Below, one piece after another: positions 11,032 through 52,220 of a stretch of DNA of 52,220 nucleotides (the stretch's first letter is position 1; each line of letters starts with the position of its first letter). The stretch is from a virus (taxonomy: Duplodnaviria; Caudoviricetes), in IMG/VR virus record IMGVR_UViG_3300014962_000011, positions 1 to 52,220 of that record; one strand, written 5' to 3'. The notes beneath the pieces were generated by a model. The model had not been told where the DNA came from, did no database searches, and saw only the letters and a list, made by a program, of their open reading frames with translations. The position numbers were made by a program, and so were the translations under genes.

Positions 11032-11223
11032 ATGAAGAAACAAAAACCAACGCACGGTGGAGCGCGTGAAGGCGCAGGCAGGCCGACAGATGACCCAAAG
11101 ACCAAAACGATCCGCGTAACAGAAACAGAGCATAAACTAGTGAAGGGGTATCGTACCAGCGACCACAAATCAGAAATACTAAAGCTGGCAGGCGTAACCA
11201 CCCCCAAGCGTAAAACTAAATAG
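11032..11223 (+). CDS. small DNA-binding protein (AT-hook-like GGAREGAGRP plus RHH-like strand)
   Basis: THGGAREGAGRP...TKTIRV. Confidence 0.65.
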   Translation: MKKQKPTHGGAREGAGRPTDDPKTKTIRVTETEHKLVKGYRTSDHKSEILKLAGVTTPKRKTK

Positions 11224-11224
11224 A

Positions 11225-11440
11225 ATGAAAGCTAAAGACTTTGTAAAGAAACATTATCCCGAAGCTGTTGCAGTAAAGCAGAGATTTGTCGGCATTCACG
11301 AAAGATACACTGGCTACATGATAAATCTGTCGCCGCAATGGGAGCATTATGCAGATGCAAGAACCGAGGCGAAGGCGTGGCAGGAGGCAAGAGAAAACAT
11401 AGAGCACGATTTAAAACAGGGAAACAACTTTAAGGCATGA
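11225..11440 (+). CDS. hypothetical phage protein
   Basis: Packed operon; paralog-like to 5233-5451. Confidence 0.6.
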   Translation: MKAKDFVKKHYPEAVAVKQRFVGIHERYTGYMINLSPQWEHYADARTEAKAWQEARENIEHDLKQGNNFKA

Positions 11441-11700
11441 AAGCGGAAATGAAGTACAGGGCAGAACAATCGAACTACGAACTTAGCCTATCAAAAATGG
11501 CTGGGAAAAATATTGTTGACGTGATAGGCTATGTATCTACCGATTTTGGCGAAGATGCGCCTGTATTCAAAACAACTAGAGTGGTATTTGAAGATGGCCA
11601 ATTGGTTAGATTTCAGGGCGAGCATGACATTGCATATATACCAGCAAATGATGGCGCAGATTGGCTAAGTGTTGATTTCTTAAATTCCCTAAATGATTAA
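11437..11700 (+). CDS. hypothetical phage protein
   Basis: ATGA overlap. Confidence 0.6.
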   Translation: MKAEMKYRAEQSNYELSLSKMAGKNIVDVIGYVSTDFGEDAPVFKTTRVVFEDGQLVRFQGEHDIAYIPANDGADWLSVDFLNSLND

Positions 11701-11702
11701 CC

Positions 11703-11918
11703 ATGACCAAGCTAAGCGACGCGCAGAAAGAGGTGATAAGGAAGATGCGGGAGGGGTATTTGGTTGTCGAAGATTTTTGGGGTGTCGTATGTGGATATTG
11801 GGACAGCAAGCGCATAAACAAGACTATTGATTGCCTAGAAAAAATAGGTGTCGTTTATAGGAAACAACATAGCAACATTTACACCCTCACCACTAAAGGC
11901 AAGAGCATAGAGTTATGA
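11703..11918 (+). CDS. winged-helix-like small protein
   Basis: LSDAQKEVI...LEKIGVV...YTLTTKG pattern. Confidence 0.55.
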   Translation: MTKLSDAQKEVIRKMREGYLVVEDFWGVVCGYWDSKRINKTIDCLEKIGVVYRKQHSNIYTLTTKGKSIEL

Positions 11919-12273: not shown

Positions 12274-12299
12274 AAAAACCCGCCGAAGCGGGTCTATTT
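12274..12299. terminator. terminator at the convergence of early and late transcription
   Basis: aaaaacccgc-cgaa-gcgggt-ctattt. Confidence 0.7.
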
Positions 12300-12383: not shown

Positions 12384-12608
12384 CTATTTGATAGCCCTTT
12401 TGCACCAGCCTTTGAGATACTTTATCTGCGACGGGTTGCGGTCAACAATGCCGATGTAGTACCGCACTTTCTCCACCTTGAATTTCGCGTTAAATAGAGC
12501 CGTTTTAAGGCTGTCGTTCTGCCTGCGGTATATCTTGCAGGAATCTACTGTTTGCGCCTGTAATGACTGGCTAATGACCAGCAAAGCAACTATAATCGCC
12601 CATCTCAT
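12384..12608 (-). CDS. secreted small protein at the end of the lysis cassette
   Basis: Signal peptide SLQA|Q, coiled coil, two Cys; overlaps the endolysin stop. Confidence 0.6.
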   Translation of the reverse strand: MRWAIIVALLVISQSLQAQTVDSCKIYRRQNDSLKTALFNAKFKVEKVRYYIGIVDRNPSQIKYLKGWCKRAIK

Positions 12609-13018
12609 ATGCTAAACCCGTTTACGTTGTTCAATGCGTCTAATGCCGTCTGGCTCATAATGCCCGTTTCTGGCAATCCTAGAGCCTTCTGGCAAAGTGT
12701 GATTGCTGGCTTCACCCCGGCGTTAACTGCGAAATTTGCGATACTAGACGCACTCTCCTGACTATCTATGCCATCGCACCAGCACCTATCCCAATAGTTT
12801 GCCTTGTAGAAGTTTTTGAGCAGTGGGATTTCTGACGGCGGGAGCACATCGCCCACCTTCAGGCCAAGTTCCTTTACTCTGGCAAATATCGGGCTGTTAG
12901 GGTTCGCTTTTTGAGATACCCCGGCAACGGTAAAACCGCCCCGGTCATTCTGATCGTTAGTTATCTTGTAACTTTCGTCCTTCATTAATTCGTCAAAAAA
13001 AGGTTTGAAGTCTGCCAT
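12605..13018 (-). CDS. endolysin, glycoside hydrolase family 108
   Basis: DESY...NDQNDRGGFTVAGVS; FYKANYW; FAVNAG...CQKALG...GIMSQTAL. Confidence 0.85.
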   Translation of the reverse strand: MADFKPFFDELMKDESYKITNDQNDRGGFTVAGVSQKANPNSPIFARVKELGLKVGDVLPPSEIPLLKNFYKANYWDRCWCDGIDSQESASSIANFAVNAGVKPAITLCQKALGLPETGIMSQTALDALNNVNGFSI

Positions 13019-13040
13019 TTGCGATTGTTTTGTATATTTT

Positions 13041-13598
13041 CTACACCCGTATTAACCCTAAATTGCACCCCCTCCAAATAATCAAGTCAACCGTGTGTTT
13101 TGTTTCTCCTGTTATTTTTGATATTTCATCACAAAGGCCATCTGGCGTCATGTTGTATGCGTTAGCAACCCTTACAAGCCACCTGTCTGGCTTCACGACA
13201 TTAAGTCCTAAGTTTTTAGCTAAGTGCCAACAAGTAATGTCGCCAATCCACGGCAAAGACTTTAGATATTCAACCTTATTTTCCGAGTTTTTATACTCTT
13301 CGAAAAGCCTTATGCTGCAATTCATTATGTGGTCGATAGCGGCAACTTTTCCTTTGTGATTAAATGCGGATGATGTCGATTTTCCATTACTCCACGCAGC
13401 ACGTATTTTGTCCCATATTTTTTGGGCAATCTGGTTTTTCATACCCGAATTTAGTATAACCCAAACCGCTTCGTTGGCAAAAATGTTATGGTCGCTACAT
13501 TGCTCTATGTTCCTAGACCAAGATATTTCGGCCTCATAGCCGCACGACGTCAGCGTTTCCGTTAACGCCTGAAACTGTATTTTGTCTAACAAATTCAC
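13041..13598 (-). CDS. HhH-GPD superfamily DNA glycosylase-like protein
   Basis: HhH motif LKSLPWIGDIT followed by LGLNVVKPDRWLVR and C-terminal VDLIIW. Confidence 0.6.
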   Translation of the reverse strand: MNLLDKIQFQALTETLTSCGYEAEISWSRNIEQCSDHNIFANEAVWVILNSGMKNQIAQKIWDKIRAAWSNGKSTSSAFNHKGKVAAIDHIMNCSIRLFEEYKNSENKVEYLKSLPWIGDITCWHLAKNLGLNVVKPDRWLVRVANAYNMTPDGLCDEISKITGETKHTVDLIIWRGCNLGLIRV

Positions 13599-13609
13599 TT
13601 TATATACAG

Positions 13610-13632
13610 AGCAGCTTCACGGCTGCTTTTTT
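13610..13632 (+). terminator. intrinsic terminator (antisense to the late operon)
   Basis: agcagc-ttcacg-gctgct followed by a T run. Confidence 0.55.
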
Positions 13633-13668
13633 GTTTTTATCTTATTCCTGCGTCTCTCATAATTTCGT

Positions 13669-13777
13669 TATCTTTGTGCCAGCGATTTGCTTTAATTGTC
13701 CCGCCTGAACAACGGGGGCCGAAAGTCTAGAAGTTTCACATACGGCGGTGGGGTGCTTGGCAACCTGCCGCTTTTTT
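13669..13777 (+). ncRNA. candidate ~95-nt antisense small RNA
   Basis: -7 box TATCTTTG 13669-13676; terminator gcggtgg...cctgccgc plus T6 ending 13777; no ORF. Confidence 0.4.
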
Positions 13778-13862
13778 AATACCGTCTTTTCATCAACCTA
13801 CCAACCAGCAACACCAGCAGCGCACACGCTATCACGATATTGCCCTTGTCGTATGGGGTCAT
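13776..13862 (-). CDS. 28-aa single-TM peptide
   Basis: MTPYDKGNIVIACALLVLLVGRLMKRRY; start overlaps the spanin stop. Confidence 0.4.
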   Translation of the reverse strand: MTPYDKGNIVIACALLVLLVGRLMKRRY

Positions 13863-14416
13863 TACCATTTCGGTTTAAAAAACTTCCAAACAAGTACCAG
13901 GATAACCAGCAGTAAGAGTATACCCCATGTCCATAGTGCTCTACCTCTCCATTTCCCTACTTTCTCTTTGTATTCGTCCCGCTCCCTATTAGCAGTAGCC
14001 ACATCACTCCGCAAAGCATCATTGTGCAGCGTAAGGGCGCGTATTCTGGCTTCATTCTCAGCGTGTATGGTGGTACTATCCAAAACCGTATCAACACGGT
14101 AAATAATGACCTGTGGCGGACACTTGATTTGTAGCTTGGTTTTAGTTGCTTCATCCCATGTCGCTTTAACAAAGCTGTCGCAGTCGGCCTCTACATAAAC
14201 GGTTTCTCCGGTCACGGTATCGGTCTTGCCCTGCTTCCATTTGATAACGCGCACTGTGTCTACCCTGTTAGGATACCATGACGCGCATTTCTCAGCTGGT
14301 ATAGCCTTTTTACGGGGGTTGTCGCTTGCCTCTAGCCGATCGTGGCCGCGTTCCATTTGCTTGGCAGGATTGCACGCTATAAGCGTAAGCAGTAGTATGT
14401 AGATTATGTGTTTCAT
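13862..14416 (-). CDS. unimolecular spanin (u-spanin)
   Basis: True start ATG 14416 (MKHIIYILLLTLIAC lipobox), beta-rich middle, coiled coil, C-terminal TM LWTWGILLLLVILVLVW. Confidence 0.7.
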   Translation of the reverse strand: MKHIIYILLLTLIACNPAKQMERGHDRLEASDNPRKKAIPAEKCASWYPNRVDTVRVIKWKQGKTDTVTGETVYVEADCDSFVKATWDEATKTKLQIKCPPQVIIYRVDTVLDSTTIHAENEARIRALTLHNDALRSDVATANRERDEYKEKVGKWRGRALWTWGILLLLVILVLVWKFFKPKW

Positions 14417-14892
14417 GCGTCTGGCTTTGGTTCGTCTTTGGGTTGCGGTGGCGGGGCTTGCCTGCTGAATATCCCGGCTATTTCTGTTGACTTCACGATA
14501 CCAAGCACCACGGCTGCATACAATAGCACATAGCCCAGCTGTGTAGTGTCCAATACCTGCTTTCTTACACAATGGTAAGTAAACGCGTAAAGCACCGCCA
14601 CGGTAGATATATACCCTATAAGCCTGAACCCACTTGGCGATGTTACGCCGTGCTTTGTCTCGGATAGGCACTTGCTCACAAAGTCCCATTTCCACACATT
14701 GAACGCAGTAAATGCCAGCCAGAACGCACCGAACAGGCACATACCAAGATAGCCCATACGGAGCGCGAATAAGCCTTTACCACCCCATTGTGCCGGGGCC
14801 TGCTGAATAAGGCTGTCCACGTCAGACGCGAACACAGAATTACCTATCAACATCAGACAGGCGAACAATAGTATTTTGTAGATTGGTTTCAT
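14413..14892 (-). CDS. multi-TM membrane protein, holin/antiholin-like
   Basis: Signal-like N-terminus plus three hydrophobic segments; in the lysis region. Confidence 0.55.
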   Translation of the reverse strand: MKPIYKILLFACLMLIGNSVFASDVDSLIQQAPAQWGGKGLFALRMGYLGMCLFGAFWLAFTAFNVWKWDFVSKCLSETKHGVTSPSGFRLIGYISTVAVLYAFTYHCVRKQVLDTTQLGYVLLYAAVVLGIVKSTEIAGIFSRQAPPPQPKDEPKPDA

Positions 14893-14893
14893 T

Positions 14894-15091
14894 TTACCTT
14901 CTCTTTAAAAATTTATATAGCTTATACCCATAGCTGATAAGCGCACACATACCCGCAATAGTTGCAAGCCACTTATTTACATCATCATGGGTCAAGGATG
15001 CTAAATAGCCGAAAAAAGCTGTCCCGCAAACTAGTATAAGGCTTTGTGCGCTCGGCCTCGGAATCTCATGTACAAACTCGTTAAAACTCAT
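14894..15091 (-). CDS. putative holin
   Basis: 65 aa, two TM segments, basic C-terminus YKLYKFLKRR. Confidence 0.55.
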   Translation of the reverse strand: MSFNEFVHEIPRPSAQSLILVCGTAFFGYLASLTHDDVNKWLATIAGMCALISYGYKLYKFLKRR

Positions 15092-15417
15092 TTCTTATTT
15101 ATTCTATCATAAACAAACGATATCAGTATTGCGAACCCATGCCATCCAGCTTTGGCCCATCCATACCCATAAGGCATATGATACAGGTCTACAAGCTCAC
15201 CACATGCCCACAAAAACGCAAGCAAAGTATACCAACGGCTCCGCAACAGAAATATCCATAGACACAGACTTATAAAGCTCAAATCCAGAAACAAATCACT
15301 TTGCAACCGCGAAGCCTCAAAACCCATCCATACGGATAAGCCCATTGCATATAGCAGCCAGTTACGCATTAGTGGGTCTTGGTCTGCGAATATGTCCAAA
15401 TCCGAACGGCAACTCAC
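15088..15417 (-). CDS. membrane protein
   Basis: About four hydrophobic segments; start may be MRNW at 15369. Confidence 0.55.
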   Translation of the reverse strand: MSCRSDLDIFADQDPLMRNWLLYAMGLSVWMGFEASRLQSDLFLDLSFISLCLWIFLLRSRWYTLLAFLWACGELVDLYHMPYGYGWAKAGWHGFAILISFVYDRINKK

Positions 15418-15736
15418 ATGGGCCGCCGTCCTCCGCCTTCACAGTATAGGTGTGCGTTACAGCTTCCTCCCCTTCACCCTCCGTCCACTGGCAAGTAATG
15501 TCCAGACGCTGCCCATACCTCTTTATCTTTTGTATCTCCGCCGGATCGCCATCGCTGTTATAAACAATCACGCTATCACCCAGCAGCCTACCCATTTCAG
15601 GCATAGTCAATGGGTTTGTCCACTGAACAGATACGTCATTTACATGCGTAACTATGTCGGTAAGAATATCGTGAAATTTGTCCGCCGGATATACGGCAAC
15701 ATGGTAATCTAATCTGATGCAATTGTTTGAGCACAT
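15362..15736 (-). CDS. hypothetical protein
   Basis: Co-oriented with the late operon; A-rich initiation region. Confidence 0.6.
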   Translation of the reverse strand: MCSNNCIRLDYHVAVYPADKFHDILTDIVTHVNDVSVQWTNPLTMPEMGRLLGDSVIVYNSDGDPAEIQKIKRYGQRLDITCQWTEGEGEEAVTHTYTVKAEDGGPCELPFGFGHIRRPRPTNA

Positions 15737-15761
15737 AATCTTTGTTTTTATTGGTTAGTAA

Positions 15762-16472
15762 TTAATGAACCGGGACAATTTTTAAATAAGTACTGCCGCC
15801 GGTGGTTGTCTTGTATAGCGTATTTGATTCTGCACCATCTGCAATGGCCGCCGCGTCATCGTCATATTCCGGGACGCCAGGCAGATATATTGTGCCAGAT
15901 GTGATAGTGAGGTATGGTGTCGAGAAGGTAACGCCGCCGGGAGCAGTAAATGTTATGGCTTGACCCGACCCATCCATAAAAACGGTAGTGCCATTAACTG
16001 ATGTAGTAACTGCGGGTGTTACATTGTCCCACGCCGTCGTTGCACCTCCATACCCCGCGGTCGTAGTCTGAGCGTTAACATCTCCAAATAGAATACTTGT
16101 CGCCCCGGCAGCTATGTTTACACTGGTCGGGGCCGCACTCATTCCGCTACCCTCCTGAGCTGTTAGTATAAGGAATAGGCTATTTTGTATCGCTAACGCG
16201 TGCCCGTCACAGTCAACCGTTCTATCCCCCTCCAGCGTTCCGTCGCCTGTGTAGATTGTGGTGGAGCCGGAGCCGCCGTGTTCTGCGACATACGCCTGCA
16301 TTTCTGCCACAGTAGGAAACCAGCAAAGGGTGTCGCGCGTTCCGTTGGCATTTATCCTGATTTTAGCCCTTACAGGAACTTCGTATCCGCTTACGTTATC
16401 ATTAGCGCATGTCCCCTGCCCGAACGTTGTCGCGGCTGTTAGAAGAAAGAGTAGGGTTAGTAGGTGTTTCAT
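15762..16472 (-). CDS. signal-peptide-bearing fibre-like protein
   Basis: MKHLLTLLFLLTAATTFG|Q; Thr/Gly-rich beta repeats; C-terminal PEYDDDAAAIADG...LYKT...LKIV motif typical of fibre-like proteins. Confidence 0.6.
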   Translation of the reverse strand: MKHLLTLLFLLTAATTFGQGTCANDNVSGYEVPVRAKIRINANGTRDTLCWFPTVAEMQAYVAEHGGSGSTTIYTGDGTLEGDRTVDCDGHALAIQNSLFLILTAQEGSGMSAAPTSVNIAAGATSILFGDVNAQTTTAGYGGATTAWDNVTPAVTTSVNGTTVFMDGSGQAITFTAPGGVTFSTPYLTITSGTIYLPGVPEYDDDAAAIADGAESNTLYKTTTGGSTYLKIVPVH

Positions 16473-16484
16473 TGTTATGTCGAT

Positions 16485-17168
16485 TTAAAATAGTCCTGCA
16501 TTATATCCGTATGGCACACTATAAGTAAAAGGAGATGCCCCAAAGTTTGCTGAAACCTGAATACCAGGTTGTGCGTTGCTATCCCCAATGCCCCATGCTG
16601 CATATATGGTATTGCCCGAAAGCCCCGTGCTATAAGCCGCGCCAATTTTAGCGCTCCCGCTCCAAGGTATGCCCCCGCCAACCCAACCAGAAGAATTTCT
16701 GAAGTAGACAGCGCCATTATCCATATCCAACGCCACGCCAACAACCTCTCCATCTGTAAAGCCGGTGCCATATCCTTGCAACCCGGGCGGCGTGTGCCAC
16801 CTATCTCCAGTATAGTAGTACCCCCAGCCAGCATTGTTACCCCCAAGAAACTGATTGAGGTTAACGGTGCTGAGCGCTATGCCCACAAAACCATATGTAA
16901 CCCCGGTTGACCATACTATTTCCCAATACCATTTGCCGCTTGTTTCTCCAACGGTAGAGATGCCGCATCGGCTTAATCCTACTGGTACATTTACAACAAG
17001 GTCGCCCCCGCTAAGCGTTACGCTGCCACCCTGCTTTGCCGGGTCCCATGTAGAACAAACAGTGCATGTTGTTGCCGCCTGCACTTGTCCGAATGGTATA
17101 GGCGGCATGATCTGCGCATGGATCGACAGGCTAAACAATATTGCAAGTATGTATAGTATCCGTTTCAT
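16485..17168 (-). CDS. signal-peptide-bearing SPRY/B30.2 (ConA-like) domain protein, putative receptor-binding
   Basis: SIHA|Q; SGKWYWEI...VGIA...GWGYY...GEVVGVALDMDNGAVYF...ANFG. Confidence 0.75.
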   Translation of the reverse strand: MKRILYILAILFSLSIHAQIMPPIPFGQVQAATTCTVCSTWDPAKQGGSVTLSGGDLVVNVPVGLSRCGISTVGETSGKWYWEIVWSTGVTYGFVGIALSTVNLNQFLGGNNAGWGYYYTGDRWHTPPGLQGYGTGFTDGEVVGVALDMDNGAVYFRNSSGWVGGGIPWSGSAKIGAAYSTGLSGNTIYAAWGIGDSNAQPGIQVSANFGASPFTYSVPYGYNAGLF

Positions 17169-18025
17169 TAGTGTTGTGTGTAGGTTGCGCCTTTTAGGTC
17201 AAAAAACGGGCCGCCGCTAGAGGTGCTATTATACATGTACTCTTCAGATTGAACCTGACCGGGCACAGTGCCTATAAAGTAACTGACGGCCCCTTGCTTG
17301 AAAATGCTGTTGTGCGCTATTACCCTGCTTGTGCCATTATCCTCATACGTGATAACCAGCAATTGACCATTCGCCCATGAACCCGAAGGGGCGGCAAATG
17401 TTACATTTCCCGATTGGGCGGTTATGAATACATATACGGGCTTGTTTATGTCAGCGCTGGTTGATGTTATAGTGTATGTTGAGGCTACTGATACGGACGT
17501 TGTGACCTGTGCTGAGTTAGATGCGGCTGTTATGTCGCCAAGTGTTGCAAACGTGTCTGTAAGCCCCGGCTTATTTGGTAGGTAAATAGATTCATTGCTT
17601 GATATTGCGGATGGCAGTATCGCTATTAGATTTGAGTTTGAGCGGCTTTTCATAAGCCATAGACCTACACCGCTGGTGTTAGTGAATTGCCAGATAGCCT
17701 CGCTGCTCCATGTGCCTGTAATGCCCGTACTATCAATTGCTACTTGTCTTCCTGAGCCTGAGCGACCGAAAGCCGTTTGATATGTTGTGCGCGCTCCGGC
17801 TGCACAAACCGCCTGCAAATCCCACAGGGTAAGATATTTACAAACGCTGTCGATGTTGCCGCCCACGTTAACAGGTGTCACACTATTGGGCGCAGTTTTT
17901 ATCGTTATGGTTGTGTTGTTGGTGCTGCGAAAATTGGTAAGCAGGGAGTTGGTCGTCTGTGCGATTGATGGCACACCCGCTATAACCAACAGTACGCACA
18001 ATATGCGTTTAAGGTAAGGGTACAT
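17168..18025 (-). CDS. signal-peptide-bearing tail-fibre-like protein
   Basis: PSIA|Q; Ser/Thr-rich; C-terminal VTFAAPSG...GQLLVITYEDNGTSRVI domain. Confidence 0.6.
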   Translation of the reverse strand: MYPYLKRILCVLLVIAGVPSIAQTTNSLLTNFRSTNNTTITIKTAPNSVTPVNVGGNIDSVCKYLTLWDLQAVCAAGARTTYQTAFGRSGSGRQVAIDSTGITGTWSSEAIWQFTNTSGVGLWLMKSRSNSNLIAILPSAISSNESIYLPNKPGLTDTFATLGDITAASNSAQVTTSVSVASTYTITSTSADINKPVYVFITAQSGNVTFAAPSGSWANGQLLVITYEDNGTSRVIAHNSIFKQGAVSYFIGTVPGQVQSEEYMYNSTSSGGPFFDLKGATYTQH

Positions 18026-18050
18026 AGTAGAAAGAGTTTATTCGGTTGAA

Positions 18051-18078
18051 CAAATGTAATACTTTCCACGAAACGGAA
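18051..18078 (-). promoter_or_regulatory. late promoter -7 box plus TTCC-N7-GGAA operator
   Basis: TACATTTG on - (18051-18058); TTCCacgaaacGGAA 18064-18078. Confidence 0.55.
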
Positions 18079-18095
18079 AAAATCTATTTTTTGGA

Positions 18096-19115
18096 CTAAA
18101 CGAAAGCGCTGCTGAACTCAGAAGTGAATATCCGGGCGAATGGGTTGTCGCCGGGGTTCGCAATAGCGTTTTGGGATTCAGATACCAGGGCGATGGTCGT
18201 GCTGGCAAAAATCAGTGGAGCAATTTCGCTATCCTTTATCTTCCAAAGGTCGGAAAGGCTCGTTTGGCTTTGCGGGTTAAATACGATATATGGAAAGTCG
18301 TCTATGGTCAATTTATCCGCCAATAGCGCCTCAGTTATCATCTGGAGCATGTAGTAAGGTATTCCAATAGAAACCTCGCCTACTTTGAGCGTAAATGTGC
18401 TTACCTGATCGGTTTTTATCTGCACTTGGCTATATGACTGTTTGACATACCCCACATTGATAACCTTCGGCACGAATACGCTGACCAATGCCTCGCATCG
18501 TTGGTAAAACACCGCAGAGTATGGGTCTGAGTTGAATGGAAAATCGTTGTACCAGCCGCCGATAATGATGTTTTTACGGGCTACGTTGCTATTATAAGTG
18601 AAGGTGAATAGCATTGTGTCCGGGTGGTCTGTGGCTATATTCAGTGGCTCACTCCAATAGCTCAAAGTATCTTCGCCAGTCATTTCATTATCACATCGTA
18701 TGTAGTAAAATTCGCCGTCTACAATGTCCGTAAACGCTGATGGTGTAAATGAAAATAGATAGCTATTTAGCGGGTATGAAGTGCCCGTGCTTACCGCCGT
18801 CCATGTGTTCCCGGCAAGTGACTGGCCGCCCTTAAAATACGGCGCTACATTCAGGTCTATGGTGGATATTTCCTGCTGGTATTTATCACACAGATAGAGC
18901 TTTGCAATGCTGCTGCCACCCTGCACATGAACCATTATCGTTATTGTGTCATTAAGCCCTATTTTCTGGTAGTATTGCTGCGCTGGCTGCCAGTCCTGTA
19001 TAGTTAGCCCATACACCGCCTGACCTAGTATTTGCAGGCCTTTCGGCACGTCTCTATCACGGCTTATCTTCACCGAATTTGATAGCGGGAATATAGTTAT
19101 CCTCTGCGCAGGCAT
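18096..19115 (-). CDS. tail/baseplate structural protein
   Basis: Position after the tail genes; beta-rich composition. Confidence 0.6.
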   Translation of the reverse strand: MPAQRITIFPLSNSVKISRDRDVPKGLQILGQAVYGLTIQDWQPAQQYYQKIGLNDTITIMVHVQGGSSIAKLYLCDKYQQEISTIDLNVAPYFKGGQSLAGNTWTAVSTGTSYPLNSYLFSFTPSAFTDIVDGEFYYIRCDNEMTGEDTLSYWSEPLNIATDHPDTMLFTFTYNSNVARKNIIIGGWYNDFPFNSDPYSAVFYQRCEALVSVFVPKVINVGYVKQSYSQVQIKTDQVSTFTLKVGEVSIGIPYYMLQMITEALLADKLTIDDFPYIVFNPQSQTSLSDLWKIKDSEIAPLIFASTTIALVSESQNAIANPGDNPFARIFTSEFSSAFV

Positions 19116-19153
19116 TTAGAAAAGGGTTTGGTCTCACGAAGATAGGAATTGTT

Positions 19154-19250
19154 TTCCAAAAAATGGAAAAAGGACGGTAGAAACCGCCCTAACCTATAAA
19201 ACCTATCATGAGTCAATCGGTGCAAAGATACTAAATTCCGGAAAATGGAA
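19154..19250 (-). promoter_or_regulatory. two TTCC-N7-GGAA operators, promoter and terminator defining a ~50-nt RNA
   Basis: Sites 19154-19168 and 19236-19250; TATCTTTG on - at 19223-19230; hairpin ggacggt-agaa-accgccc 19172-19189 with a U tract. Confidence 0.55.
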
Positions 19251-19347
19251 AAGCCCAGCAAGTGCTTTTGCTGGGCTTGATGTTAGTTAGAGGCTAACGG
19301 TTGTATTAGGAGGATACAAAGGTATGTTATTTATTTCAATTGCAAAC
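19247..19347 (-). ncRNA. candidate ~60-nt small RNA with consensus promoter
   Basis: TTTG (19344-19347), 19-nt spacer, TACCTTTG (19317-19324); terminator aagcccagcaa...ttgctgggctt 19251-19278. Confidence 0.45.
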
Positions 19348-19799
19348 ATAGGAGGGTTACTCCCTTGCAACCCCTATAAATAGAGTCCGAAGGCTTCCGC
19401 TGTTTGAATAGACTTGGCTATTTGCTCACAGCTTCCTGCTCTGTCTTACCTGTCGCCTCCCATGCGAGTGTTGAAGTTGTTACGGGAACTTTTGCAAGTC
19501 GTTAGTTGCCCCCTCTAAAGCATTGCTAACACTGGTTACTTCAACAATTCTTTCTGTTGTGCCAACCGGCCTGTGAAGGCTCTAAACACACAGTTTCTTA
19601 AGATCAAAGCTAAACTTTCATTTTGCAAATGAAGCACCATTTGCGCGGAGTCAAACATACTTAAGACCGCTTTACAGCACAAATTTACCACATATACAGC
19701 GCGTGCGCGCGATAATATGCAAAAAGTTATCCACAATTTATATAGCTACCGTAAATTAATTTTTGGCCCGGCATTTGCTATATTTACAAAAATCACCTT

Positions 19800-20099
19800 A
19801 TGAGCAACGACGGTAAAATTCAATTCGGCGTGATAATGTTAGTGGTAGGCATAATCATTGGCATATACGCCTTTTTCTTTTTCGATGTAAGTGTATCATC
19901 ATACTATTCTAGCGGCACGGCTAATATGGACTTACTGAATCGGAGGACTTGCTTAATGATAGCGGCTGCCGCTCTATTTATTAGCGGGGCTGTTATGAGT
20001 TCATCCACAAATAATGATAGGCTTTATTCTATCGATGTAAAAATAGATACCATAACTTCAATTTTGACAAAGATTATATCAAACAAAAAAGAAGATTAA
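19800..20099 (+). CDS. membrane protein (moron)
   Basis: Two TM segments; opposite strand to the surrounding tail operon. Confidence 0.65.
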   Translation: MSNDGKIQFGVIMLVVGIIIGIYAFFFFDVSVSSYYSSGTANMDLLNRRTCLMIAAAALFISGAVMSSSTNNDRLYSIDVKIDTITSILTKIISNKKED

Positions 20100-20101
20100 C
20101 C

Positions 20102-20569
20102 ATGAAAAAATTTCTCCTTTTATTCGTAATCATCGCGGCTGTGAGCTGCAATAAGAAAGATAACAAGCGCGCAACTACGCTATCGCTCACCGCTGCTGCC
20201 AGTGATATGGGTTTGCTGTTTGAGCATAAGTACGCTATGGTATTGTACAGCGGAAGTGGCATAATGGATGCTGATAGCATTACATTTCACGCTGACAGCA
20301 CTATAACGGAAAAGCTATACAACGACAGCTCACATACTTACGTAACGACCCCCACGGTAGATGTTCACCCGTCCGCAAGGAATAATACGGCAATTAGAAT
20401 TTCCAGACCAGCTACATCATCCGGCTTTGGATTGCTAAACAACTACACAGGGGATACTGTTAATTTTGCTTATGTAGGATTTTATACAAGCGGGCCTATA
20501 TTTAACATTGGCAATAAGGCTACATTGGGCATTATGCTATCTAACAACAAATACGCGATACTTTACTAA
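20102..20569 (+). CDS. lipoprotein (moron, candidate superinfection exclusion)
   Basis: MKKFLLLFVIIAAVSC lipobox followed by NKKDNK; opposite strand to the tail genes. Confidence 0.7.
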   Translation: MKKFLLLFVIIAAVSCNKKDNKRATTLSLTAAASDMGLLFEHKYAMVLYSGSGIMDADSITFHADSTITEKLYNDSSHTYVTTPTVDVHPSARNNTAIRISRPATSSGFGLLNNYTGDTVNFAYVGFYTSGPIFNIGNKATLGIMLSNNKYAILY

Positions 20570-23169
20570 ACCACAGTATCCGGCGTTATCCATCCATAAA
20601 ACTCCGTAGCTGATCCGTCAGCAACCTGCACCGCTTTGTAGATAAAGAACCTGTATTCTGTTGTGGTGTAGCCTACTTCTTTCCATAAAAAGCGCACATA
20701 CCCTTTTGGGTCATTGCCAAACAGCTCATACATATTTACCGGGTATTTAGAGCGCACGCGGATAATGCTGTCACCAAATAATCTATCCGGCAAATCACCA
20801 ATGCGTATGTCTGAAAATTCAGTGTATGGTGTTGCGGATGCCCCTACATCTAGGTTGCTGGATATGCCAACAGGCGTAAAGGGCTGGTTATTTAGCTGAA
20901 TAATAGTGTTGTTCCTAAAGGTCAGGTATTCGTCATCCATATTGCTCAACACACTGCGAATAATAGGGCCATTGCGATAGATATTTCTGCATGGCGATAG
21001 CGGTATGTTTATAGCTGTATCTGGATAATAAAGGCCCGCAACGTATGGAGCGGTTGCCGCTGTCGGGTCTGTGCTCTGTGCGTTGCTGTATTTTTTTATT
21101 GCGTATGCAAAGCCGCCTATCGGATTGTTTTCGGGGTCATAAATCTGCACCAACTTGCCATTAACCATAGCTGGCAACTCAAAAGACTGTTCACTTTCCA
21201 TGTACAGTGCGACAACCTTGTCATTTGCTGATGGCTTGCCCGCGTCATATACCGCCGTCACATTCTGCGTCACCTGCTGCTGACGAATGAACTCAGTTTC
21301 ATACATGCCACATACAATGCCTGTTTCCTGCATATCCATAGTACCAGGTACTGCGACAGCAGGGGTGTCAAACTCTTCCTCTGTATTAAATTCGTCAACC
21401 CCGAAATTACTGTTGGTATCAGCTCGATTATAACCGGCTTTAAGTTGCGCTCCTATACCATCCGTCATTTGCTGTATCTCAAATTCTGTTACATCATAAC
21501 CCAAATCAAGTATCATAGTATTTGGGAAGAAGTAGCCGAAATTTTCAATCCTGAATGTATCGCCTTCTATGGCTCCGGCGCACCCTGCAACAGTTTTGCA
21601 AAAGTTGAAAAGCTCGTTAAATGATATAGCCATATAGCTACGCCCTTGCAAATTCTGCAAGGTGTATGAAGATGTAAGCAATATATTAAACGGTACTACA
21701 TCAGCAACCGGCGCAGCTTCATCGTTGAACAGGTATTCGCTAAGCCCGGTATATGGCGTTGCAACTGGCACGGGGAATCCCCAATCATCTGACCGGGTTG
21801 TTGCCAACATTGGGACTATCTTTTGCAATACCTGATAAAGCCTATATCCCATAAAAACAGACGGGGGAAATGAGGGGGCTTGGATTGGTGTGCCGCTTGA
21901 CCCGCTGTCGTAGTTTGACAGGAAAGAAAATTGTAGGTTTGAAAACTCTAAATTTAACTGCGTTCCCTGCGCAATACCTGCGTCGTCATCGAATATTAGC
22001 GCAAATACATAAACCTTATTATAGCTTAGTGTAGTTGTAATTGTTTCAGATATTGTGCCTCCGGGGGTAGATGCGCCGGTTAAATACCATTTATAAATAG
22101 TGGTATATGTGTAGTTGCTTCCAGACATTACGGGTTTATCGTCGGTGCCTATTTCAAAAAGTACAAATCCCAAAAAAGGGTTTGTAGACGGTGCGGCGCC
22201 GGTAATCTCCATTGTACCAGGTATAGTAGCCTGTACCTGCACGGACATTTCTATACTGCCAGAACCCGTTGGCAATATATTTTTTAAACTAAACCTGTTT
22301 GTTGTATATGGCTTACTGTTGTTGTCTCCATTAAAATCCCGCTCGTTAGCTCCCGGCTGTGATGGAACCGGCCCCGGCTTATCGCTTCCATTCGCTTGAT
22401 TGCCAGTTATTAAAAATGGGGTTAGAATTGTATTGCCGACATAAGTGGTACTGCCGTCTTTTTGCACTGGCGTATACGGCGACAAATATGGAATTGTGTG
22501 ATACCCGTCATCAGGCGCGTCAAAATGCTTCCCATGATTAAATCCAAGCAACTCACGCCCATTTATCTGCGCATAAACCAAAGTGTCATCTGGCGTTGCA
22601 CTACTAATAAACGTCGCATTATACAGCAGCTTTATCCCCTCATGCACGCCAAACTTTGCATCTGTAAGCCAATCATCCAAATCGCTGTCATACGTCCAAT
22701 AGGGTATTTTGAACTTGGTATTGCCCCTTGCCTGTATCTGCTGTATCAACTCACTATCGAGGGTTGATATTTCCAGAATTTGATTCATCTGGTTATCGAG
22801 GTAGGTACGGAAATCCAACAACGTTTGATACCATATGTCATACTCAAAAGTTGATTCGTTCCATATCCATATTTTCAGGTTGCCATATCCGCGTATGCCT
22901 GCCTGACGGCGTATATACTGAATGATGGCCCGAGCATCTTTGCTAAATTTAAACGCTCCATTTGAAGACTGCGAGCGAAATACGCCCAAGTATTCCGGGT
23001 GCCGGTTCCACTCAATGTTGATAGTTTGCCAGTCCTGCGGTAACGTAGATAAATATGTCTTGGTGGTAGTTGTGGTTACAGACCATGTGGCGGATTGTTG
23101 CAACGTAGCAACATAGTAGTTGCCGTCACGATCCTGCAGGGTCATTTCAAATTGACTATTATATGCCAT
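20566..23169 (-). CDS. large tail tip / baseplate hub protein
   Basis: 867 aa directly after the tape measure gene. Confidence 0.65.
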   Translation of the reverse strand: MAYNSQFEMTLQDRDGNYYVATLQQSATWSVTTTTTKTYLSTLPQDWQTINIEWNRHPEYLGVFRSQSSNGAFKFSKDARAIIQYIRRQAGIRGYGNLKIWIWNESTFEYDIWYQTLLDFRTYLDNQMNQILEISTLDSELIQQIQARGNTKFKIPYWTYDSDLDDWLTDAKFGVHEGIKLLYNATFISSATPDDTLVYAQINGRELLGFNHGKHFDAPDDGYHTIPYLSPYTPVQKDGSTTYVGNTILTPFLITGNQANGSDKPGPVPSQPGANERDFNGDNNSKPYTTNRFSLKNILPTGSGSIEMSVQVQATIPGTMEITGAAPSTNPFLGFVLFEIGTDDKPVMSGSNYTYTTIYKWYLTGASTPGGTISETITTTLSYNKVYVFALIFDDDAGIAQGTQLNLEFSNLQFSFLSNYDSGSSGTPIQAPSFPPSVFMGYRLYQVLQKIVPMLATTRSDDWGFPVPVATPYTGLSEYLFNDEAAPVADVVPFNILLTSSYTLQNLQGRSYMAISFNELFNFCKTVAGCAGAIEGDTFRIENFGYFFPNTMILDLGYDVTEFEIQQMTDGIGAQLKAGYNRADTNSNFGVDEFNTEEEFDTPAVAVPGTMDMQETGIVCGMYETEFIRQQQVTQNVTAVYDAGKPSANDKVVALYMESEQSFELPAMVNGKLVQIYDPENNPIGGFAYAIKKYSNAQSTDPTAATAPYVAGLYYPDTAINIPLSPCRNIYRNGPIIRSVLSNMDDEYLTFRNNTIIQLNNQPFTPVGISSNLDVGASATPYTEFSDIRIGDLPDRLFGDSIIRVRSKYPVNMYELFGNDPKGYVRFLWKEVGYTTTEYRFFIYKAVQVADGSATEFYGWITPDTVV

Positions 23170-23174
23170 AGGGT

Positions 23175-26100
23175 TTATCTTTTAACTCTGAACTGTAAAT
23201 TTTGCTGCGTCCTTACTGCGTCTACATATGCCTGTGAGACGTTGGGTATCTGTGGCCTGCTGCCATACATAGCCCTTACCATATCGTCGCCAACATCTTC
23301 AAACTTGTTGCCTATATACTTTGTAAGTTCCTTCATGATGGCTCCGTCATTTACCGGGTTGACCATAGGCTGGGTAATGAACATACGGGCCGCCGCCGCC
23401 TGTAAAATGCGGGTTGTTTCCTCTGCTGTATTGATTTTAGTACCAATAGGCATTTTATAAATACCCCTCTTTTCGGCTATGGTCATGCTGCCATCTGGTG
23501 CGGTCATAAGCTCTGCACCTTTTTCGCCCGCGACAAAGTGCTCTGTTGTAGTTGTACCGCCTTTGGCAAATTCGGGCAGTGGAGCGGATGCCGCCGCCGC
23601 ATATTGTACCGCTCCCGTGGCCGCCAGTAACGCCGCAATAGGCACAGCAACAGGGTAAGGAAAATCAACGAACGCCTTTATGATGGCAACGGCTGTATTT
23701 GCTATGATAGAGCTTTCTGCCGCCTGCTTTTGGGCTTTAGCCGCCTTCAATGCCAGCGCATTAGATTTAGCCTGCAATTCGGCTTCTTTTGCCTGTGCCT
23801 GAGCCAATACCTGCTGCTTTTCATTTGCCTTATCAATGGCATAACCCGTAGTAGCATCAATAGCCCTTAACTTTTGGTCTGTGTCATTGCGTAGTGTTTC
23901 CTGTTCGCGCTGGATTTGATTTTGCTCCGACTGTATTCTCTGCTGTGTAGCCTGTGCCTCCGCTTGTATTACTTCCTGAATGAGATTTACCGCCAAATCT
24001 CGGATATGGCGCATGTCATCTTCCTTCTTTCGCCTTATTGCGTCGTCACTATTTGCAATGGCCAGCTCATATTCCTTTTGTTGGCGAATTAGGTCATCGT
24101 ACACCTGCTGGCTCAATGCTACTTGCTTATCAGCTTCCTCTTTGTAGTCTGGAGATAATGGCCCGGATGCATTTTCTTTTGCCTTTTGCAATGCCGCCGC
24201 CGCGCCCGGAATCTGCTGATTCACCCCGTTTAGTCCTATTTGCGCCTGATTCCTATTGTTGCGCTGGTCTTCTATGAATGTTGCATAATCCCTCGTTGCG
24301 GAATTTCCGCCGCCCGACACGATTGATATGAGGCGCTCCAAATGGCCTATATCAGCATTGGTAGACAATGACCGTGTAGCTTCTATTACTTTTGCCGATA
24401 TCTTATTAAAATAATCCTCGGCTAGTTTTAATCTCTGCTTGTATGCATCCCGGTCAATTTGCTTCAATTTTTCGTCCTGCTGGCGCTGCGCCTCAATGAT
24501 CTGGTTGCTATCAGTTATGGTCGCTGCCATTCCCCGGAACTGCGCCTCTAAGGCTTCCTTTTTTGCTTTGGTTTGCAAGTCTATTGCCGCCGCCGATTGT
24601 TCATAGCTAGGAATGCCAAATGCAGCGTTGCTACTAGCTAAATCCGCAGCGCCTTGCAATAGTCCTACGCCGGTCTTTTGATTCCTGGAGTATTCATCTC
24701 GCGAAAATTCATATTCTGCGTTCTTGCGCTCCTGTTCGCCTATTGCCTTGAGCAGATTGAGTAATTTGTCGTAAGCCTGAATATTCTTATCAGTATAGCC
24801 TAGATTGTTTTCGTCTGTCACAGACAGCCTGTATATCTCTCGATTCTTACTGATTTCATCCGTTAAAGCCTTGTATTTCGCCCGGGTGTCTGCAACTATC
24901 TTGTCAACACTTGCTACATCCTCCTTCTCAGTCTCTTGGCGTAGTTGCTCCCGAGTAGCCGAAAGTTCCTTTTGCAGCTCTTTTTCTTTCTGATTCATTA
25001 GCCTGTTGCGATTTTCTACAAAGGCTACTATGGCATTCTGTGTGGCGGCTTCCGTTTCTGTTATCTGCTTTTCTATTGCCTTGCCGTCTGCAACATTCTG
25101 ATTTCTGATGTCATCTATTATCTTTTCTAAGTTCGTGCCAGCCTTAACTGCATCATTAAATTGCTTTTCTATGCCCTTAATTACCGATTCAGGTAGGTTG
25201 CCTTGCATTCGTAGGTATTTTGGCAAATTGGCCCTATCCCCCTCCGCATACGCAAGCGCAGAGCCAATATCCTGACTGATATCCAGCTTCTTTTTAAGTA
25301 GCTTTATTTCTGCCTCCCGGCGCTCGTTTCCTGCGTCCAATACCTCCTTTTCGTGCTCATAAACTGCGTCGTTTACAACTCCAATAGATTTTATCAATTC
25401 CTCTTTACGCTTCAGCCCATCTACCGTATTTGCTTCTATGGCTTTCAGTATTTCTACATTACTTATCGCAGCAAGATTCAGCGTTTTTTGTAACTCTTGA
25501 AGTTTTGTAACTTGGTCAATAACACTTTCAAATGCGGAGGAAAGATTTTTTGCCGCCTCAGCAGTTTTGTTTATACCTTCCTCTGTTTTAAATAGGTCTT
25601 TACCAAATATTTCAAAGGCGGCGTAAGCCAATACAAAAATGTTGGTAAAGTCAAAAAATGACGTTGCAAGTATCTTTAATGCTTTGCCGGTGCTCCCAAC
25701 CTCCGCCCTAAGTATCTTGAATTGGTCAAACAGCCCAGCGAAGTTGTTGGATAATGCCGATAGCCCGGTCTGTATCCCATTTGCAAATGCGGGCGCTTCA
25801 CGTATGAGCTGCGATAGGGCCAATGTTGCATTTTGGTACTGTCCTACTTTCCGCTGATGCCTGCCAACAGATTCCTCAATCTTCACTAGCTGGGTGTTCA
25901 TATCCCTAGCCTTAATAATGAATTTTTGAGCCTCTGCGCTGTCTACACCATACGCAGCCGCCAGCCGCATTGCCTCTTTGGCTGTATCGTTGTAGTTCTT
26001 CTTTAAAACCTCATATTCATCGTTTAGCTTACGCGCTTTTTCCTGTTCGCGCTGCAATAGCTTATCATTAAGATCCTTTTGCTTTTGCAGTTTAATGAGC

Positions 26101-26543
26101 TGCTGTATTTCCTCTGCTTTGGCTTTATTTCGCTCCCTAGTGTTTTTTATTTCTAATGCATCCGCCTTTGCGTTTTCTTGCTTCGCCTTAGCGCTCTGCA
26201 CCTCCACCTGCTCCAGTTGCTTCATCACGCCCACCAGATCCTTAGTGCTGCCATTGTGCTGCGCTTTTAATGCTGCTGCTCTCGCTTCAAGTTCATTGGC
26301 CTCCCGCGTAGCATTACCCAGCTTCAAAAGATTACCCTGAAGGTCTACAATGGTATTGCTGGCATTCTGAACCTGTTTCTGCCATTCGTTGATGTTGGTA
26401 ACTCCCTGTACATCGACCTTAAAGCTCAGAGCCTTAGAACTACCCTCGGCAATCTTGCCAACTACTTCGTCGATGGCCTTTAGCACTTTCGCTTTATCAG
26501 CCTCAATCTGCTCGACCCCAAATATTTTACTAATGTCCTCCAT
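23175..26543 (-). CDS. tape measure protein
   Basis: 1122 aa, Ala/Gln/Glu/Lys coiled coil, GRHQRKVGQY, C-terminal hydrophobic helices and FAKGG...AGEKGAEL. Confidence 0.85.
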   Translation of the reverse strand: MEDISKIFGVEQIEADKAKVLKAIDEVVGKIAEGSSKALSFKVDVQGVTNINEWQKQVQNASNTIVDLQGNLLKLGNATREANELEARAAALKAQHNGSTKDLVGVMKQLEQVEVQSAKAKQENAKADALEIKNTRERNKAKAEEIQQLIKLQKQKDLNDKLLQREQEKARKLNDEYEVLKKNYNDTAKEAMRLAAAYGVDSAEAQKFIIKARDMNTQLVKIEESVGRHQRKVGQYQNATLALSQLIREAPAFANGIQTGLSALSNNFAGLFDQFKILRAEVGSTGKALKILATSFFDFTNIFVLAYAAFEIFGKDLFKTEEGINKTAEAAKNLSSAFESVIDQVTKLQELQKTLNLAAISNVEILKAIEANTVDGLKRKEELIKSIGVVNDAVYEHEKEVLDAGNERREAEIKLLKKKLDISQDIGSALAYAEGDRANLPKYLRMQGNLPESVIKGIEKQFNDAVKAGTNLEKIIDDIRNQNVADGKAIEKQITETEAATQNAIVAFVENRNRLMNQKEKELQKELSATREQLRQETEKEDVASVDKIVADTRAKYKALTDEISKNREIYRLSVTDENNLGYTDKNIQAYDKLLNLLKAIGEQERKNAEYEFSRDEYSRNQKTGVGLLQGAADLASSNAAFGIPSYEQSAAAIDLQTKAKKEALEAQFRGMAATITDSNQIIEAQRQQDEKLKQIDRDAYKQRLKLAEDYFNKISAKVIEATRSLSTNADIGHLERLISIVSGGGNSATRDYATFIEDQRNNRNQAQIGLNGVNQQIPGAAAALQKAKENASGPLSPDYKEEADKQVALSQQVYDDLIRQQKEYELAIANSDDAIRRKKEDDMRHIRDLAVNLIQEVIQAEAQATQQRIQSEQNQIQREQETLRNDTDQKLRAIDATTGYAIDKANEKQQVLAQAQAKEAELQAKSNALALKAAKAQKQAAESSIIANTAVAIIKAFVDFPYPVAVPIAALLAATGAVQYAAAASAPLPEFAKGGTTTTEHFVAGEKGAELMTAPDGSMTIAEKRGIYKMPIGTKINTAEETTRILQAAAARMFITQPMVNPVNDGAIMKELTKYIGNKFEDVGDDMVRAMYGSRPQIPNVSQAYVDAVRTQQNLQFRVKR

Positions 26544-30797: not shown

Positions 30798-31376
30798 TTA
30801 GTAAGCGGTGGTTTGTGTTGCCGTAAATGTTGCCGTGCAGGTGCCGGTAACTATCGCCCGCACCTGCTTGTACGGGAATATCTCAGCATCTTTCGGCAAA
30901 TACCAGTAGTAGTGAGTAGTCCCCGAACCGGTGAGGGTTGCAGAACTGCCCGAGCAGCCCGCACATGCTGTTGTATTGCCGGTGAGCGTTAGCCAGTTTT
31001 GACCGTCCCTACTGCCTTGTAGTACTGCTGTGCCGGCAAGCGTACCGGTCAGCGATGTTACACTAAAATCAAATAGCTTATCCACATTGCTGGAGTTGCT
31101 GAATTGGTAATAACCGGTATCGGTATTGTAGCCCAACGAATTAACTCGTGGCGCTTTCAGCGTGTCCGGGTGGCTGGAAGATACCGGCGTAACTGTGCCG
31201 AGCGTGATCGTAGCCTGATTACCGGTGGCGTAGCCTATTGAAAGGTATGTGCCGCCAGCATTTATGCCGCCGCGTGTTGCGCTCTGCGTTTGTGCCGGTG
31301 TTTTCGGAATAAATGTTTGCGCCTGTGCGCTGAAACATAAGGCTATAAAAGCCATGATTGCTATTATCTGCTTCAT
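30798..31376 (-). CDS. signal-peptide-bearing protein in the head module (decoration-like)
   Basis: MKQIIAIMAFIALCFSAQA|Q; beta-sandwich-like LQGSRDGQNW; CAGC. Confidence 0.6.
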   Translation of the reverse strand: MKQIIAIMAFIALCFSAQAQTFIPKTPAQTQSATRGGINAGGTYLSIGYATGNQATITLGTVTPVSSSHPDTLKAPRVNSLGYNTDTGYYQFSNSSNVDKLFDFSVTSLTGTLAGTAVLQGSRDGQNWLTLTGNTTACAGCSGSSATLTGSGTTHYYWYLPKDAEIFPYKQVRAIVTGTCTATFTATQTTAY

Positions 31377-34238: not shown

Positions 34239-34251
34239 AAAACCTATTTTG

Positions 34252-34323
34252 TAGCGGGAGGCGGGATCGAACCGCCGACCTATGGATTATGAGTCCATTG
34301 CGCTACCCCTGCGCTATCCCGCG
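34252..34323 (-). tRNA. tRNA-Met(CAT), initiator-like acceptor stem, no encoded CCA
   Basis: CGCGGGA TA GCGC AGGGGTA GCGC A ATGGA CTCATAA TCCAT AGGTC GGCGG TTCGATC CCGCC TCCCGCT A folds as a full cloverleaf with a C1:U72 mismatch. Confidence 0.9.
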
Positions 34324-52144: not shown

Positions 52145-52220
52145 CAACCATTTTAACAACCATAACGAGAAAGTATGAAAAAAGTAACAACAGTAGCTCT
52201 ACTGGCATTGAGCATGGCGA
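52144..52220 (+). repeat. 77-bp direct repeat, copy 2
   Basis: Identical to 1292-1368. Confidence 0.95.

Follow-up and report, generated by a model that had tools for sequence, protein, structure and literature searches.

The 52,220-base IMG/VR virus record IMGVR_UViG_3300014962_000011, analysed over its whole length and hereafter called the window, carries a siphophage-type late region on its minus strand. Three consecutive open reading frames (ORFs) of this region, at 15762-18025, encode a fibre-like protein of 285 amino acids (aa), a 227-aa SPRY protein and a second fibre-like protein of 236 aa. A sequence-only reading of this DNA had assigned signal peptides to exactly these genes, and each of the three ORFs does begin with a signal peptide of the type recognised by signal peptidase I (SPase I), followed directly by Gln. 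Coordinates of all features are collected in Table 1.

Signal peptides followed by glutamine

The N-termini around the predicted cut (marked by a slash) read MYPYLKRILCVLLVIAGVPSIA/Q in the 285-aa protein, MKRILYILAILFSLSIHA/Q in the 227-aa protein and MKHLLTLLFLLTAATTFG/Q in the 236-aa protein. The same pattern recurs, as the sequence-only reading had noticed, at 30798-31376 in a 192-aa protein (..CFSAQA/QTF) and at 12384-12608 in a 74-aa protein (..SQSLQA/QTV). All five N-termini combine a basic n-region, a hydrophobic core free of acidic residues (best 9-residue Kyte-Doolittle mean, 2.7-3.7 in the three at 15762-18025) and small or neutral residues at positions -3/-1, and none has a lipobox Cys. 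Signal peptides were called by our own heuristic, by inspection and by conservation. Gln occupies position +1 in 5/5 of these signal-bearing proteins; with Gln at 4.1% of the residues in window ORFs, the chance of this agreement is about 1e-7. A sixth N-terminus of SPase I type, that of a 159-aa protein with multiple transmembrane (TM) segments at 14413-14892, is followed by Ser, and four further window proteins are lipoprotein-like.

A survey of homologues found both the signal peptide and the +1 Gln conserved. They are kept in P0002, the closest and sole close homologue of the 285-aa protein (68% identity), and in P0005, which is the sole homologue of the 236-aa protein. For the 192-aa protein, a search at E<=0.001 gave 21 homologues. 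In this family, 20 of whose 22 members have a complete N-terminus, Gln20 is invariant throughout (22/22) and is one of 13 invariant columns; the hydrophobic stretch varies freely. Selection on the +1 Gln would imply that cleavage takes place, since its conservation is otherwise hard to explain. Judged from these sequences, export and cleavage of the signal-bearing proteins are very probable.

The leaders are Bacteroidota-style signal peptides, as first proposed, both in their +1 Gln and in their fit to the host type. In Bacteroidetes, a Q-rule describes SPase I substrates whose +1 Gln is cyclised to pyroglutamate (Bochtler et al. 2018, via PMC10367356; PMC10653852). The window proteins resemble such substrates in their signal architecture, in the Gln right after the cleavage site and in the lack of a lipobox. 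Q-rule substrates are cellular envelope proteins, whereas the carriers in the window are late phage proteins of fibre, lectin and decoration type whose cleavage is predicted. Five phage genes of this kind and of unknown function have been described in Porphyromonas gingivalis phages and interpreted as outer-membrane modifiers (Matrishin et al. 2023; PMC10367356). They are likewise phage-encoded and predicted to follow the Q-rule, and the passages of that paper cited here do not tie them to fibre or decoration positions or to fibre domains. Among the literature we searched on signal peptides of Bacteroidota phage fibres and virion proteins, this paper alone links the Q-rule with phages; the Hankyphage paper says that the phage target proteins of diversity-generating retroelements have no signal peptide, and the rumen-phage, BV01 and B124-14 papers refer to signal peptides solely as counts or methods. 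Q-rule phage proteins were thus known before, and what is new here is the appearance of fibre-type and decoration-type phage proteins as Sec substrates.

The destination predicted for these proteins is the periplasm, until lysis, because they have neither a lipobox nor a C-terminal sorting domain (CTD) of the type IX secretion system (T9SS). NCBIfam models of type A and type B CTDs found none at E<=0.1 in 14 proteins, comprising the five window proteins and relatives, and on this result an identity as T9SS cargo was rejected. Paired Cys, as described by the sequence-only reading, were not confirmed: the mature parts of the five proteins hold 2, 3, 3, 3 and 2 Cys; relatives have 1 to 3, with a single Cys in a 952-aa relative. 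Oxidative folding, which that reading had offered as a reason for export, is weakened because the Cys number is odd and not conserved.

Fibre, lectin and capsid-side relatives

The 285-aa protein is built like a receptor-binding fibre. The cleavage site is followed at once by an N-terminal module, NFRxxNNTTITxKTxxxSITPxNVGGNIDS (the N-module), which is kept in ten signal-bearing proteins with differing C-termini. Orthologues of the 285-aa protein in the related viral records G002 and G003 keep the N-module and end in other C-termini, and a single family member, P0104, has the N-module but no signal peptide. Receptor-binding fibres are usually made in this way, with a conserved N-terminus joined to an exchangeable C-terminus.

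The C-terminal domain points the same way. An exhaustive search with the C-terminal ~115 residues gave matches at E<=0.001 to 547 proteins, which are 88-1450 aa long. We scanned 30 of these C-domain relatives against Pfam and 36 against PHROG; the C-terminal part of phrog_3030 was matched by 23 of the 36, often beside tail-fibre, tailspike or depolymerase PHROGs. The 285-aa protein itself had no PHROG match at E 0.01, and its link to fibres is indirect. By these relatives, its C-terminal domain is assigned to the phrog_3030, tailspike-associated kind. AlphaFold2 (AF2) modelled this domain with a predicted local distance difference test score (pLDDT) above 90, and the N-terminal half poorly, at 47-63. 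Structural neighbours of the phrog_3030-type domain are 6o38_A, the Pa223 capsid spike 9ny6_C, a KP1 baseplate protein, Solidus gp83 and CBA120 TSP4. Known fibres and tailspikes of this type differ from the 285-aa protein in having no signal peptide and in being assembled in the cytoplasm.

Signal peptides occur in a minority of proteins with this domain. We surveyed 152 proteins, namely P0002, P0003 and P0005 together with 149 other C-domain relatives among the matches listed. The heuristic called a signal peptide in 37 of them, and 36 of these 37 show [AGSCT]Q after the hydrophobic (h-) region, against 19 of the 115 signal-less proteins. Among the signal-bearing proteins are some of 600-1130 aa that match tail-fibre PHROGs. 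The C-terminal domain is encoded at 78 loci of IMG/VR contigs; 69 of these ORFs have a complete 5' end, and three of the 69 carry a signal peptide followed by Gln (L052, L104 and, from an internal start, L096). The domain is therefore for the most part a phage fibre module without a signal, and a minority has acquired a Bacteroidota-type leader. For the 285-aa and 236-aa genes, pattern scans of viral contigs found no close relative, and an hmmsearch with the signal-bearing N-termini (IGxLPTS...) retrieved its six seeds alone.

The middle gene encodes a SPRY protein, again as first read (PF00622, 38.5 bits against a cut-off of 26.3, E 1.4e-9), with a match to phrog_10080 (E 1.2e-20) and to SPRY structures down to E 5e-7. 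Many phages have SPRY segments in their structural proteins. In G002, the homologue (220 aa) has a signal peptide followed by Gln. In L096, a homologue at 11163-11873 (33% identity over 227 residues) starts MDRNDFIKNSIALASGLL.., and its leader looks like a twin-arginine translocation (Tat) type rather than a Sec type.

The 236-aa protein has P0005 (346 aa) as its sole homologue, at 35% identity over 66% of the query. The two share a C-terminal motif, Y.DDAAAI.DG...Y.TTT.GSTYLKIVP.H, and the remainder falls to 33% identity. This motif had no match in cultured phages or viral contigs, the protein had none in Pfam, PHROG or NCBIfam, and Atlas leads to spike-like folds stayed below a reliable score.

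The 192-aa gene occupies the position of a cement or decoration gene. In 11/11 related viral loci, whose capsids are 23-66% identical to that of the window, its homologue directly follows the capsid gene and always has a signal peptide followed by Gln. AF2 modelled the 192-aa protein as a jelly-roll sandwich (pLDDT 81). An outer-membrane beta-barrel of the Lom/Ail kind, suggested by the C-terminal aromatic residue, was rejected on the basis of this fold. Foldseek found no PDB match at E<=0.001 for either AF2 model (192-aa or 285-aa), and the BFVD matches of the 192-aa model were all uncharacterised. The cultured phage Pan5 provides a named relative: its gp7 is related to the 192-aa protein (hhalign probability 96.5%, E 9.8e-10), likewise carries a signal peptide followed by Gln and likewise comes after a homologous capsid gene, but is 133 rather than 192 aa long. 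The depositors labelled gp7 'cement' (ON968456; PMC9837993 Table S2), and whether cryo-electron microscopy or AlphaFold2 underlies the label is not stated there. By descent and architecture, then, the four proteins are candidate virion-surface modules: a fibre, a SPRY lectin, a second fibre-like protein and a jelly-roll protein in the cement position.

The sequence-only reading had gone further, holding that all tail-tip proteins carry signals and that no signal-less fibre gene is evident. This is wrong for the window, where the 339-aa tail protein and the 867-aa distal-tail or hub protein both have no signal peptide. The hub protein is conserved over its full length in 5/5 related records (34-49% identity); the 339-aa protein has homologues in G003 (38% identity) and G004 (23%) and none in G002. 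The claim of no signal-less candidate does hold for G002, whose completeness CheckV puts at 100%. After its hub gene, G002 has four consecutive genes for proteins with a signal peptide followed by Gln (one with the N-module, one of 534 aa, one SPRY homologue and one of 103 aa), with no signal-less gene before the lysis genes. In G003, two such genes, for proteins of 952 and 483 aa, flank the signal-less homologue of the 339-aa gene. The region beyond the hub gene runs off the contig in the other three related records. All four lineage records that are readable here (the window, G002, G003 and Pan5) have at least two such genes between the hub and lysis genes.

Pan5, whose late gene order matches the window overall, encodes three proteins with a signal peptide followed by Gln: gp7, gp18 (973 aa, with a lectin-like C-terminus) and gp19 (a polysaccharide lyase resembling heparin lyase I). 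Pan5 was deposited as a cyanophage (Pseudanabaena phage, ON968456), yet the signal peptides of these three proteins are of Bacteroidota style, and its true host may deserve a second look.

The layout recurs in L052, L096 and L104, where two or three genes for signal peptides followed by Gln, including those of 956- and 998-aa proteins, lie between the tail and lysis genes. These loci have no capsid, portal, tape-measure or hub homology to the window. What they do share with the window is the fibre domain, together with a SPRY protein and a spanin-like protein, and nothing else is detectable.

Proposed docking at lysis and its alternatives

From the signals and their conservation, the fibre homology, the gene positions and their recurrence, we infer a route by which late proteins of a probably temperate siphophage with a Bacteroidota-type host would be exported by Sec across the inner membrane. 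SPase I would cut before the invariant Gln, and host glutaminyl cyclase would turn this Gln into pyroglutamate. Late in infection, the exported proteins would fold in the periplasm and build up there. Heads and tails built in the cytoplasm would meet them when holin, endolysin and spanin open the envelope, and the exported proteins would then dock on finished particles as fibres and decoration, which is the weakest link of this mechanism. That fibre- and decoration-type late proteins join particles only once the envelope is breached is the reading we favour, tentatively and as something plausible rather than probable, because of the fibre-like modularity, the virion-type domains, the fixed gene positions and the case of G002.

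Several points weigh against docking. We know of no tailed phage that adds exported subunits to its particles, and our literature searches found no report of one. Docking after lysis must compete with rapid dilution of the lysate. Pan5 gp19, the polysaccharide lyase, looks like an ordinary secreted enzyme, and a search of the PDB found no Pan5 structure. The signal-less 339-aa and 867-aa tail proteins could serve adsorption. In the control phage B124-14 of Bacteroides, none of 68 coding sequences encodes a signal peptide followed by Gln, so export is no general need of Bacteroidota phages and the trait is lineage-specific. A relation between the KISELP start of fibres and the signal-bearing IGxLPTS N-termini is unsupported (hhalign probability 6%).

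The missing precedent, the dilution at lysis and the Pan5 lyase speak at the same time for a different outcome, which we consider possible if on balance doubtful: the exported proteins may never join the particle and may instead assist the late or lysis programme as free factors, in the periplasm or after release. They could be lectins or enzymes of envelope glycans, maskers or destroyers of receptors on debris and sibling cells, or XepA-like lysis helpers, and no new assembly step would be required. Phages are known to export late proteins by Sec, among them signal-peptide and signal-arrest-release (SAR) endolysins, Llp/Cor-type lipoproteins and XepA. XepA of PBSX and YomS of SPbeta (PDB 6i56, 6i5o) are exported prophage proteins beside lysis genes, and the interpretation of five Q-rule phage genes as host-envelope modifiers, in the cited passages of Matrishin et al. 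(PMC10367356), fits the same outcome. So does the apparent transcription unit of the window genes, which counts in favour of docking as well. On the late strand, the stop of the 285-aa gene and the start of the 227-aa gene have 1 nucleotide (nt) in common, and the gaps are then 12, 25 and 70 nt. Two hairpins that resemble terminators precede the 339-aa gene (19171-19190 and 19251-19278), and a third follows the 74-aa gene (12276-12295); none lies between the 339-aa gene and the end of the 74-aa gene, so the three genes seem to belong to one unit with the lysis genes. Free factors leave three things unexplained, however: the conserved N-module with swapped C-termini that marks fibres, a C-terminal domain shared with virion fibres and spikes, and an exported protein fixed beside the capsid gene in 11/11 relatives down to 23-25% capsid identity. 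They would also leave G002 with only the conserved hub for adsorption.

We judge it unlikely that the hydrophobic N-termini go unused, or are used in part, and that the proteins join particles in the cytoplasm, with the N-terminal helix as an assembly or membrane tether or with a signal-less fraction acting through dual localisation. All other known tailed-phage morphogenesis is cytoplasmic, 66 of the 69 complete C-domain ORFs in viral contigs have no signal peptide, and P0104 combines the N-module with a signal-less start. In the 227-aa gene, a Met also stands three residues beyond the predicted cut, but this Met is not kept in the G002 homologue, and the 285-, 236- and 192-aa genes have no downstream start codon. 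An invariant +1 Gln with canonical -3/-1 residues and a variable h-region is, moreover, the signature of a cleaved Bacteroidota SPase I substrate.

Lysogenic-conversion (moron) genes that alter the host envelope from the prophage, for example in superinfection exclusion, are very unlikely as an account of these proteins. The phage is probably temperate, given an integrase-like ORF, and true moron-like genes lie nearby on the other strand (19800-20569). A TAnnTTTG motif, which we take to be the Bacteroides -7 promoter element, stands 33-26 nt upstream of the 285-aa start, but such motifs are not enriched in the window (41 observed against 47.8 expected). The genes in question are on the late strand with overlapping or near-abutting frames and no terminator between them, and in relatives ~1000-aa proteins with fibre domains hold the equivalent position.

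Docking may also be part of a larger scheme, which we regard as rather doubtful, in which the particles of some tailed Bacteroidota phages are built in two compartments: fibres, lectins and decoration would be exported by Sec, capped by pyroglutamate and perhaps O-glycosylated by the general periplasmic system of the host, and would dock after the holin has opened the inner membrane. Exposed virion parts would then receive the same protective modifications as the surface proteins of the host. PMC8550257 gives (D)(S/T)(A/I/L/V/M/T) as a Bacteroidota O-glycosylation motif. D-T-[LMV] is present in 22/22 members of the 192-aa family (D71 and T72 invariant, the third position L, M or V) and twice in Pan5 gp7; D-S-[VTL] is present in 10/10 signal-bearing N-module proteins and absent from the single signal-less member. 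Export might, on these motifs, give access to host glycosylation. Enrichment of the sequon in the exported proteins was considered and rejected: each has 0-2, within the range of shuffled sequences, and the cytoplasmic capsid protein has four. What is left as a lead is one invariant site in each of the two families.

Virion proteins with Sec signal peptides are known from filamentous phages, in pIII and pVIII. There, assembly takes place at the membrane and the particle is extruded through it, whereas the window phage is tailed and has a lysis cassette. Tailed-phage morphogenesis is taken as wholly cytoplasmic, and the conserved export signals on fibre-type and decoration-type proteins in several lineages leave two possibilities. 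If docking is true, there is an unrecognised extracytoplasmic maturation step, with pyroglutamate and possibly glycans on the virion surface; otherwise, there is a widespread class of secreted fibre-like phage factors. Either answer bears on the prediction of receptor-binding proteins for gut, oral and environmental Bacteroidota phages, on the expression of such proteins with or without their leader for host-range work, and on how 'tail fibre' annotations in viromes are read. Pan5 is a cultured relative, so the question is directly testable.

Lysis genes, host type and the rest of the window

Table 1. Features of the window, with coordinates in the 52,220-base record
Feature	Coordinates	Strand	Remarks
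285-aa fibre-like protein	17168..18025	minus	signal peptide 1-22, Gln23, N-module, C-terminal domain ~170-285
227-aa SPRY protein (concanavalin A-like lectin fold)	16485..17168	minus	signal peptide 1-18, Gln19
236-aa Thr/Gly/Ala-rich fibre-like protein	15762..16472	minus	signal peptide 1-18, Gln19
192-aa jelly-roll protein	30798..31376	minus	signal peptide 1-19, Gln20; directly after the major capsid gene
74-aa protein with PG_binding_3	12384..12608	minus	signal peptide followed by Gln; PF09374 at 26 bits (cut-off 24.6)
339-aa tail protein	18096..19115	minus	no signal peptide; first gene of the unit with the three signal-peptide genes and lysis genes
867-aa distal-tail/hub protein	20566..23169	minus	no signal peptide; phrog_15220 virion structural protein, E 8.7e-22
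1122-aa tape-measure-like protein	23175..26543	minus	by position, length and coiled-coil-rich sequence
432-aa Big_2-domain protein, then 210-aa and 338-aa proteins	between the 192-aa gene and the tape-measure gene	minus	
Major capsid protein, 370 aa	31383..32495	minus	homologue of the Pan5 capsid; phrog_7231
Portal-like ORF	36079-38022	minus	
Terminase-like ORF	38592-39995	minus	
Integrase-like ORF	40969-42111		putative
Lysis region	12605..15417	minus	
TM proteins	15088-15417, 14894-15091, 14413-14892	minus	
184-aa lipoprotein with C-terminal TM segment, u-spanin-like	~13862-14416	minus	start MKHIIYILLLTLIAC...
185-aa ORF	within 12605..15417	minus	in the lysis region
GH108 muramidase, 137 aa	12605-13018	minus	no signal peptide; GH108 E 8.3e-10
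Moron-like cassette: 99-aa TM protein and 155-aa lipoprotein	19800..20569	plus	interrupts the tail operon

The 184-aa lipoprotein begins inside a longer ORF (13862-14740), has weak homologues at the equivalent place in G002 and L052, and looks like a unimolecular spanin from its sequence. The endolysin appears, by its domains, to be split into a catalytic and a peptidoglycan-binding ORF: the last 4 nt of the GH108 endolysin gene are shared with the 74-aa ORF, and G003 has an equivalent split into a protein of 157 aa and a 78-aa protein with a signal peptide followed by Gln. The peptidoglycan-binding module of such a split endolysin would reach the periplasm before the holin fires.

On the opposite strand, the moron-like cassette is followed by the hairpin at 19251-19278, which is two-way. 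The cassette lipoprotein of 155 aa has a homologue at the equivalent place in G002. Six TAnnTTTG motifs stand on the minus strand at 19223-19687. The cassette and this cluster could represent superinfection-exclusion genes and the promoter region of the fibre and lysis unit, respectively.

The capsid protein of the window is 36.6% identical to the annotated Pan5 major capsid protein over 99% of its length, and tape-measure homologues occupy the equivalent place in related loci. Searches further afield gave little: megablast of 15000-23200 found no match, tblastn of the 285-, 236- and 192-aa proteins against cultured phages found none, and a scan of species genomes for prophage relatives returned a single weak and probably spurious match in an archaeal metagenome-assembled genome.

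Translation signals fit a Bacteroidota-type host. Bacteroidota genes have scarce Shine-Dalgarno sequences and A-rich upstream regions. In the window, a Shine-Dalgarno-like 4-mer precedes 3 of 59 genes (>=90 aa), against 7.6% of random positions, and the regions upstream of genes are 42% A.

A tRNA-Met (CAT) gene lies at 34251-34323 on the minus strand, between the head genes and small ORFs. The record has a linear classification and, by CheckV, an estimated completeness of 66%. Its last 77 bases (52144-52220) exactly repeat 1292-1368 and include the start of a lipoprotein gene, which suggests an assembly overlap and a unit of 50,852 bases with an extra 1.3 kb at the left end.

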